From the NCBI RefSeq assembly GCF_009931435.1, contig NZ_CP043414.1: DNA of 64,000 bases; one strand, written 5' to 3'. Made by a program: the position numbers and the translations under genes. Positions 98-624 of the stretch are shown piece after piece (positions within the stretch are counted from its first letter, which is position 1; every line of letters starts with the position of its first letter). The notes below the pieces were generated by a model. The model was not told the DNA's origin. It saw only the letters and a list, made by a program, of their open reading frames with translations, and made no database searches. The DNA comes from Escherichia coli. GTDB lineage: Bacteria; Pseudomonadota; Gammaproteobacteria; Enterobacterales; Enterobacteriaceae.

Positions 98-624
98 CTC
101 AGGAAGGAAAAAGTGGCTTCCGCGCACCTTAGGTCAGACAAGGTATCCGGGAAAGTCAATGGGAAGAGAAAAATTTGTTAAAAATAACTGTTCGGCGATT
201 TCTTGAACGGCAGAATAGTATGGGTAAATTGATATAGATGGTTTATTAATCTTGTCGCTAATGATTGTCAAAATTGATCTAAGCACGAATCATCACATAA
301 TCTGATGTATCAGTTGTGGTCAATATATAAGCGAATGTAAGCGATTGTTGAGTCGGAAATGGTTGTTTTCTATTCGGTTATTGTTAAATACCAAGCCAAT
401 TTGTTACTTTTGCATATATTATAAGAATATTATTTATTACTTTAATTCAGTTTACATATAACCGATTTACCTTAAGGTTATTAATTTGAATTATGACACA
501 CTGATATTATTCATCAAATAATAACAAAATAGTCATTGCACCGGGTTGTACAATTTACAAAAGAAATATACCCCATAGCGCATAATGCGATTAAATACGC
601 CGTCTTATAGAAAATGATGGTTAG

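Follow-up and report, generated by a model that had tools for sequence, protein, structure and literature searches.

Xenogeneic silencing by H-NS, which takes in cryptic adhesins of Escherichia coli, is one described system against which AT-rich DNA upstream of an adhesin gene can be compared. Curved DNA is another kind of H-NS target, of which the proU and hns upstream regions are examples. Closest to the element studied here is a 534-bp 'promoter island' of E. coli K-12 assigned to yfaL/ypaB (2342143_534 in NC_000913.2; Panyukov & Ozoline 2013, PMC3661553 Table 1), which was H-NS-bound in all the chromatin immunoprecipitation (ChIP) studies compared, those of Grainger, Kahramanoglou and Oshima (PMC3661553). 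We analysed the equivalent DNA in a 64,000-nucleotide stretch of E. coli contig NZ_CP043414.1, hereafter the window. Coordinates are window positions, and the corresponding NC_000913.3 coordinate in K-12 MG1655 is 2344800 minus the window position. The element in question is an AT-rich segment at 380–624, in front of the autotransporter adhesin gene yfaL, that had been picked out by a first-pass annotation. We conclude that the larger block containing it, 210–630, with 380–624 as its core, is probably an AT- and TpA-rich platform on which H-NS silences yfaL.

The core forms the yfaL-proximal part of the 695-bp divergent nrdA/ypaB/yfaL spacer. Directly downstream is yfaL, also named ehaC (631–4389, plus strand), which encodes an AIDA-I-type autotransporter adhesin and has its RefSeq start at ATG 631, so the AT-rich region does lie immediately before yfaL as first described. 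Its designation as the yfaL promoter is only partly apt: the block is upstream of yfaL, but the divergent spacer is common to nrdAB and is not a one-gene promoter. Strong AT-richness was borne out by the composition profile. The A+T content of 380–624 is 73.1%, compared to 48.3% for the window; 245-bp stretches that reach this value make up just 0.10% of the total. The richest of them in the entire 64 kb, 325–569 (73.9% A+T), overlaps the core. TpA steps occur at 0.148/bp versus 0.045/bp in the window, placing the core in the top 0.085% of stretches, and the TpA maximum, 364–608, nearly coincides with it. Short A/T tracts (at least 4 nt, containing no TpA step) occur 6.1 times per 100 bp, compared to 1.7 times in the window. 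The wider block, 421 bp in length, is 70.5% AT with 0.126 TpA/bp and matches the K-12 promoter island; beyond it, the first ~770 bp of yfaL are 58% AT. The locus therefore has the high A+T content over hundreds of base pairs and the frequent TpA steps of an H-NS-bound AT-rich region.

Occupancy by H-NS is documented for the K-12 orthologue. The K-12 island maps to approximately 146–681 of the window. Systematic evolution of ligands by exponential enrichment (SELEX) yielded both an RpoD-holoenzyme peak and an H-NS site in the yfaL/nrdA spacer (PMC3946193 Table 1), and a three-strain ChIP-seq study marks yfaL as H-NS-bound (TRUE; PMC4720273 S2 Table). Published ChIP data, which the first-pass annotation had named as a check, are thus positive at the orthologous position. 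Alignment with K-12 MG1655 over 1–700 contains zero indels, and identity is 98.1% over 1–209, 90.8% over 207–379, 89.8% over 380–624 and 88.6–93.2% within yfaL, while the neighbouring housekeeping genes show identities of 96.6% (ubiG) and 97.4% (gyrA). The AT content of 380–624 is the same in both strains. Because there are no indels, the core is 89.8% identical and its AT content is unchanged, transfer of the K-12 data to this locus is reasonable, and H-NS would be expected to occupy the block in this strain as well. The K-12 island and the window locus are orthologous and collinear, with ~90% identity, and the block carries the densest promoter-like sites of the window; they differ in that the island is wider than 380–624, overlapping ypaB and the yfaL start, and in that the window comes from a rarer lineage. 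Two further spacers serve as an internal control. Those of ompC/micF and mqo/yojI rank second and sixth in the window for AT-richness over 245 bp, and PMC3946193 gives both the HNS mark, with H-NS SELEX sites. Unlike the yfaL block, which is ~90% identical to K-12 and gave no BLAST alignment in other Escherichia-lineage genomes, they are 98% identical to K-12 and hence conserved regulatory spacers.

The case for H-NS had originally been made partly from phased A/T tracts and a curved-looking sequence, in keeping with the general statement that bent upstream DNA attracts H-NS (PMC3946193). On such an account, phased A-tracts would bend the helix, and the curvature itself would control the yfaL promoter or recruit H-NS. 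The density of A/T tracts of at least 4 nt, 3.6 times that of the window, is what would be expected on this account, but the tracts of 380–624 are just 4–5 nt long and irregularly spaced, and TpA steps, abundant here, break A-tracts. AA/TT Fourier power at 9.5–11.5 bp in the core was not above that of dinucleotide shuffles (p ~0.25), and the spectral peak fell at 9.5 bp rather than at 10–11 bp. Wedge-model curvature, calculated with parameters that separated phased from unphased A6 controls (24.4 versus 9.6 degrees/turn), was 7.6–7.9 degrees/turn for 380–624 against a window mean of 7.4; dinucleotide shuffles of the core equalled or exceeded its mean curvature in 77% of cases and its maximum in 65%. 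Neither helical phasing nor curvature above background and shuffles was therefore found in 380–624. The spacer does contain predicted bends, the strongest at ~271 and ~174, both outside the core; the one at ~271 ranks within the window's top 10 and lies beside a promoter predicted from SELEX data. The string quoted earlier as an example of phasing, 'ttattattttattactttaatt', does not occur, even at a tolerance of 3 mismatches. The real text at 428–447 is tattatttattactttaatt, and the quoted string is a misquotation, a one-base misreading.

Together, these results make curvature a very unlikely explanation. The yfaL block resembles the curved-DNA targets of H-NS in being AT-rich, upstream of a promoter and within an H-NS-bound region, but its core lacks helically phased A-tracts and is TpA-rich instead, which implies DNA that is flexible, not bent. 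'Curved-looking' is an unreliable reading of AT-rich sequence of this kind. Of the proposal that yfaL has an H-NS-silenced adhesin promoter, the H-NS part agrees with the occupancy of yfaL in K-12, whereas the rationale from curvature and phased A-tracts falls away.

The block is also dense in promoter-like sites. On both strands of 210–630 together we counted five sigma-70-like sites, the maximum for any 420-bp interval (mean 0.32, 99th percentile 2), and −10-like hexamers reach 36–53/kb (53/kb in 380–624) compared to 4.6/kb in the window. Dense overlapping promoter-like signals on both strands over at least 300 bp, which define a promoter island, are thus present in 210–630, as judged by a proxy sigma-70-like scan and not by PlatProm. 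A second mark of such islands is little productive transcription in spite of RNA polymerase binding; of the two, binding of the RpoD holoenzyme in the spacer is reported from SELEX (PMC3946193). Several individual sites point toward yfaL. A predicted site at 274–301 (plus strand), TTGATC-16-CATAAT, has both hexamers invariant in 8 E. coli strains and is the 'constitutive promoter' predicted for yfaL from RpoD-holoenzyme SELEX data (PMC3946193 Table 1); it coincides with the strongest predicted bend of the spacer. The best-scoring predicted site of the core, ATGACA-18-AATAAT at 493–522 (plus strand), matches at 10 of 12 positions, and among the strains its −10 hexamer AATAAT (517–522) is invariant while its −35 hexamer varies. 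Closest to the gene, the nearly invariant segment 580–630 (plus strand) contains a −10-like hexamer YATAAT at 581–586 (TATAAT in K-12) and is a candidate proximal promoter or 5′ untranslated region of yfaL. We found no experimental transcription start site for yfaL.

If the promoter at 274–301 is used, 380–624 would be transcribed as part of a ~320-nt leader that starts near 308. The block might then act after initiation rather than by occlusion of the promoter, by way of H-NS-aided pausing, Rho-dependent termination or an RNA element. This is suggested by the fact that the sole literature-predicted yfaL promoter, invariant in E. coli, places 380–624 downstream of the start. Set against this are the missing experimental start site, the promoter-like sites nearer the ATG (493–522 and 581–586) and the divergent strain E. 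coli SCPM-O-B-8794, in whose aligned sequence the equivalent hexamers are separated by a 12-nt spacer, so that the promoter is not conserved across lineages. A scan of the whole window at Rfam gathering thresholds returned no family in 1–700, the core included, and the idea of a known RNA element in the spacer was dropped for that reason. We regard control through a long leader as quite improbable.

Comparison with more distant genomes divides the spacer sharply. A plain 20-mer from the DnaA-box region of nrd retrieved E. coli SCPM-O-B-8794, Escherichia sp. E1V33 and E. whittamii, in which 1–209 is 94–98% identical to the window. Homology stops exactly after TTGAACG at 209 (at position 4519 of the SCPM-O-B-8794 record, L006, and at position 209 of the oriented E1V33 and E. 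whittamii sequences). BLAST gave no alignment from 210 to ~712 in any of the three, the signal-peptide region of yfaL included, and only a few collinear 9–11-mers remain in that interval. Alignment returns at ~713–750 inside yfaL, at 77–80% identity. The equivalent blocks are nevertheless 411–414 bp long and 71–74% AT, close to the 421 bp and 70.5% of the window. Length and AT content retained without BLAST alignment fit constraint on composition, not on sequence. Within E. coli, 5404 of 5426 complete genomes carry the window-type spacer, and the sub-blocks 274–301, 517–527 and 580–630 are nearly invariant among 8 strains. The yfaL gene itself has a dN (non-synonymous divergence) of 0.061 and a dS (synonymous divergence) of 0.36, several-fold above its neighbours, and the same study reports faster divergence of H-NS-bound genes (PMC4720273 S2 Table), a trend that the low identity and kept composition of the block fit. 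The 209/210 junction suggests that yfaL alleles fall into deep lineages and that recombination has a fixed boundary immediately after the ypaB stop codon (204–206).

The conserved side of the junction is the nrdAB promoter and upstream control region (1–209, minus strand; 58% AT), recognised from the annotation of matching E. coli records and from conservation. Those records have nrdA on the minus strand with its ATG 66 bp left of position 1, and the window begins within the nrdAB promoter region. Tandem DnaA boxes were found by a DnaA-box search at 77–85 and 89–97. Putative NrdR-box-like palindromes at ~13–28 and ~43–59, and an AT tract at ~165–195 that is a candidate Fis site, were placed at these coordinates by inference from sequence; the NrdR-box layout of the nrd promoter is set out in PMC12176259.

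This arrangement bears on whether the flagged DNA might be a distal part of nrdAB regulation, with sites for Fis, IciA/ArgP, FNR or DnaA, and only incidentally adjacent to yfaL. Cendra et al. are said to have dealt with H-NS and the nrd genes in 2013. The spacer is divergent and common to both genes, and nrdAB is under the control of DnaA, Fis, IciA, NrdR and H-NS (PMC4009431, PMC12176259), with H-NS listed as a repressor in both reviews. A FNR ChIP peak assigned to nrdAB (PMC3688515) maps to ~237, and the nrdAB-yfaE transcription unit is marked H-NS-bound, although the nrdA gene itself is not (PMC4720273). Yet the recognisable nrd sites all fall in 1–209, the part that is conserved across Escherichia lineages, and 380–624 lies 335–580 bp upstream of the approximate nrd start site, diverging in step with yfaL and not with nrdA. 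The core thus has neither the known sites nor the conservation of an nrdAB cis-region. Since conservation would be expected of a sequence-specific nrd element but stops at 209, an nrd-dedicated function for the core is disfavoured, and we consider it improbable.

In the reading that we prefer, silencing of yfaL by H-NS, the protein, probably with its partners StpA and Hha, would nucleate on the flexible AT- and TpA-rich DNA of 210–630. It would then polymerise along the block and spread into the AT-rich first ~770 bp of yfaL. The resulting filament would cover the yfaL promoter or promoters together with the many spurious promoter-like sites and keep transcription from both low. A condition-specific factor would open the block, GadX of the AraC family being one candidate counter-silencer. 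In a divergent spacer, such a filament would also reach up to the distal edge of the nrdAB control region, which could explain why H-NS is reported to affect nrdAB.

GadX was considered on account of two ChIP-exo (ChIP with exonuclease) peaks upstream of yfaL in K-12, 2342146–2342173 and 2342169–2342207 in NC_000913.2, which map within ~2 bp to 615–676 of the window (PMC4918353 supplementary table). The table was taken to be the GadX one by inference, and the mapping uses an estimated genome-version offset of ~1976–1978. The text of that paper ascribes binding at yfaL to GadE and GadX.

Conditional expression of yfaL, as suggested by the first-pass annotation, is plausible. Roux et al. reportedly treated yfaL as a cryptic adhesin in 2005. 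In laboratory studies a constitutive promoter is inserted to express yfaL (PMC3764049), while deletion of yfaL in O157:H7 abolishes HEp-2 adherence (PMC7864753); it is this combination, of a gene that needs an added promoter in the laboratory and yet matters for adherence, that makes conditional expression plausible. The locus accordingly shares with H-NS xenogeneic silencing an AT/TpA-rich block joined to an AT-rich 5′ gene end, fast divergence, H-NS occupancy in K-12 and expression from an artificial promoter in laboratory studies. It departs from that system in that yfaL is found in 5404/5426 complete E. coli genomes, which makes it a core, highly polymorphic locus and not a recently acquired island.

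Several observations weigh against silencing by H-NS. Dinucleotide shuffles of the region gave 3.8 ± 2.3 promoter-like sites compared to the five seen, so there is no excess. Since composition-matched sequences give similar counts, the promoter-like density is a consequence of AT-richness, and we did not use these sites as evidence for specific promoters. The occupancy data all come from K-12 (plus SE11 and SE15), from secondary tables rather than raw profiles, and none is from this strain. Derepression of yfaL in hns or hns stpA mutants was not reported in the paper texts searched, and a search for EhaC together with H-NS returned nothing relevant. According to PMC4918353, yfaL is not differentially expressed despite its GadX peaks. 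Finally, horizontal acquisition or fast evolution of this DNA could, in part, have left it AT-rich without any selection for that state. A high-affinity 10-mer consensus for H-NS, TCGATAAATT, was reportedly defined by Lang et al. in 2007. No match with up to two mismatches occurs in 380–624, a possible further departure from xenogeneically silenced loci, though a search with the consensus only and no weight matrix is a weak test, and we counted its outcome neither for nor against H-NS; the nearest two-mismatch matches in the block are at 221–230 and 272–281.

The last but one of these points can be developed into an explanation of its own, in which the block is a compositional relic of a foreign or fast-evolving yfaL cassette and of mutational bias in unconstrained non-coding DNA, bound by H-NS with no regulatory effect on yfaL. 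One predictor marks yfaL as horizontally transferred (PMC4720273), its dN and dS are very high, the block is poorly conserved in sequence, and its promoter-like sites are no commoner than composition predicts. A passive relic does not readily explain, however, why three versions too diverged for BLAST alignment are still so close in length and all 70–74% AT, well above the 58% of the yfaL 5′ region, why 274–301, 517–527 and 580–630 are nearly invariant within E. coli, or why H-NS, the RpoD holoenzyme and GadX all contact the region in published data. We therefore consider a purely passive origin unlikely, and H-NS silencing of yfaL remains our preferred interpretation.

The first-pass annotation had also pointed to a similar AT-rich block before yejO, a second autotransporter gene. 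The divergent spacer between narP (minus strand) and yejO (plus strand), 289 bp at 53896–54184, is AT-rich (63.3%), and the best 245-bp stretch near yejO, 53946–54190, reaches 66.5% AT and ranks fifth in the window. The resemblance goes little further. TpA steps, at 0.076/bp, are below expectation in density, and −10-like hexamers are near background at 6.9/kb compared to 53/kb in 380–624. Given its lower AT content, low TpA and few −10-like hexamers, the yejO spacer is not very similar to the yfaL block and would be a much weaker H-NS candidate. The literature searched contained no data on yejO and H-NS. The yejO gene is intact here (54185–56779, 864 aa), unlike its K-12 MG1655 counterpart, an IS5-interrupted pseudogene.

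Other features of the spacer were recorded alongside these analyses. A repeat search in 1–720 found only short, low-complexity matches, among them a tandem 10-bp direct repeat at 325–344, ATATAAGCGA / ATGTAAGCGA, that hardly varies among 8 E. coli strains. Its core, AGCGAATGTAA, is among the few strings also kept in the divergent version of SCPM-O-B-8794. A regulator with a preference for direct repeats could bind there. The small open reading frame ypaB (63–206, plus strand; 47 aa; RefSeq annotation) lies wholly inside the nrdAB upstream regulatory DNA, with its DnaA boxes and putative Fis site, and carries no annotation in CFT073-type strains. Its high conservation may be caused by the nrd cis-elements rather than by a coding function. 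In CFT073 and AVS0528, which is of CFT073 type, the nrdA start is 53 bp, not 66 bp, from the equivalent of position 1, which implies that the nrdA leader or promoter-proximal region differs by 13 bp in length.

At the other end of the spacer, the longest yfaL open reading frame opens at 625, at an in-frame ATG two codons 5′ of the annotated start (625–633) that is polymorphic among strains. It is ATG in the window, 2020CK-00188, CFT073, S19-141 and AVS0528, and ATT in K-12, RIVM_C036569, O157:H7 and other strains. In SCPM-O-B-8794 the yfaL allele seems frameshifted at its very start (4935–4960 of record L006), where ATGAATCAAAAAACGG includes an A6 run, and the YfaL-homologous frame (IKKRIVFIRKKY...) has no canonical start codon until a GTG at 5004. 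This could reflect a pseudogene, a slippage-prone tract or an error of the draft assembly. The nrd promoter 20-mer also occurs exactly in JQCU01000035.1, a 221-bp contig filed under Acinetobacter idrijaensis, which is most likely E. coli contamination of that assembly.

Across the whole window, identity to K-12 MG1655 is ~95.3–97.3%. Over 1–1000, strain 2020CK-00188 is the best match among 5,426 complete E. coli genomes, at 98.7%, only 63 records reach at least 95%, and most E. coli are 90–95% identical; on this comparison of sequences, the source belongs to a sparsely sampled E. coli lineage. Elsewhere in the window, Rfam matches at 27902–27978, 39748–39943, 31639–31732 and 60675–60700 comprise copies of naRNA4 (derived from repetitive extragenic palindromes), MicF and the L25 leader, and a tRNA lies at 56884–56957 (gathering-threshold match).

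As a feature the yfaL spacer is of a familiar and ordinary type, listed before now as H-NS-bound in K-12, and with those occupancy data published the finding is not new. The one modest addition is the sharp 209/210 junction, together with a composition that Escherichia lineages keep while the sequence itself is lost. In practice the result matters little. It confirms that a known H-NS-bound region can be picked out by its extreme AT and TpA content alone, and other top AT-rich spacers of the window are published H-NS sites too. The split at 209/210 between a conserved nrdAB half and a hypervariable yfaL half offers clean boundaries for reporter constructs, and the role of YfaL/EhaC in biofilm formation and O157:H7 adherence lends some applied interest to the regulation of yfaL. 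A further idea, rather unlikely but suggested by the comparison of lineages, is that selection maintains the block as a 'silencing cassette' linked to each deep yfaL allele, constant in length (411–421 bp) and composition (70–74% AT) and ending at the fixed 209/210 junction, with selection acting on H-NS-binding composition and not on sequence. If so, the same block could couple silencing of the adhesin to modulation of ribonucleotide reductase by H-NS.

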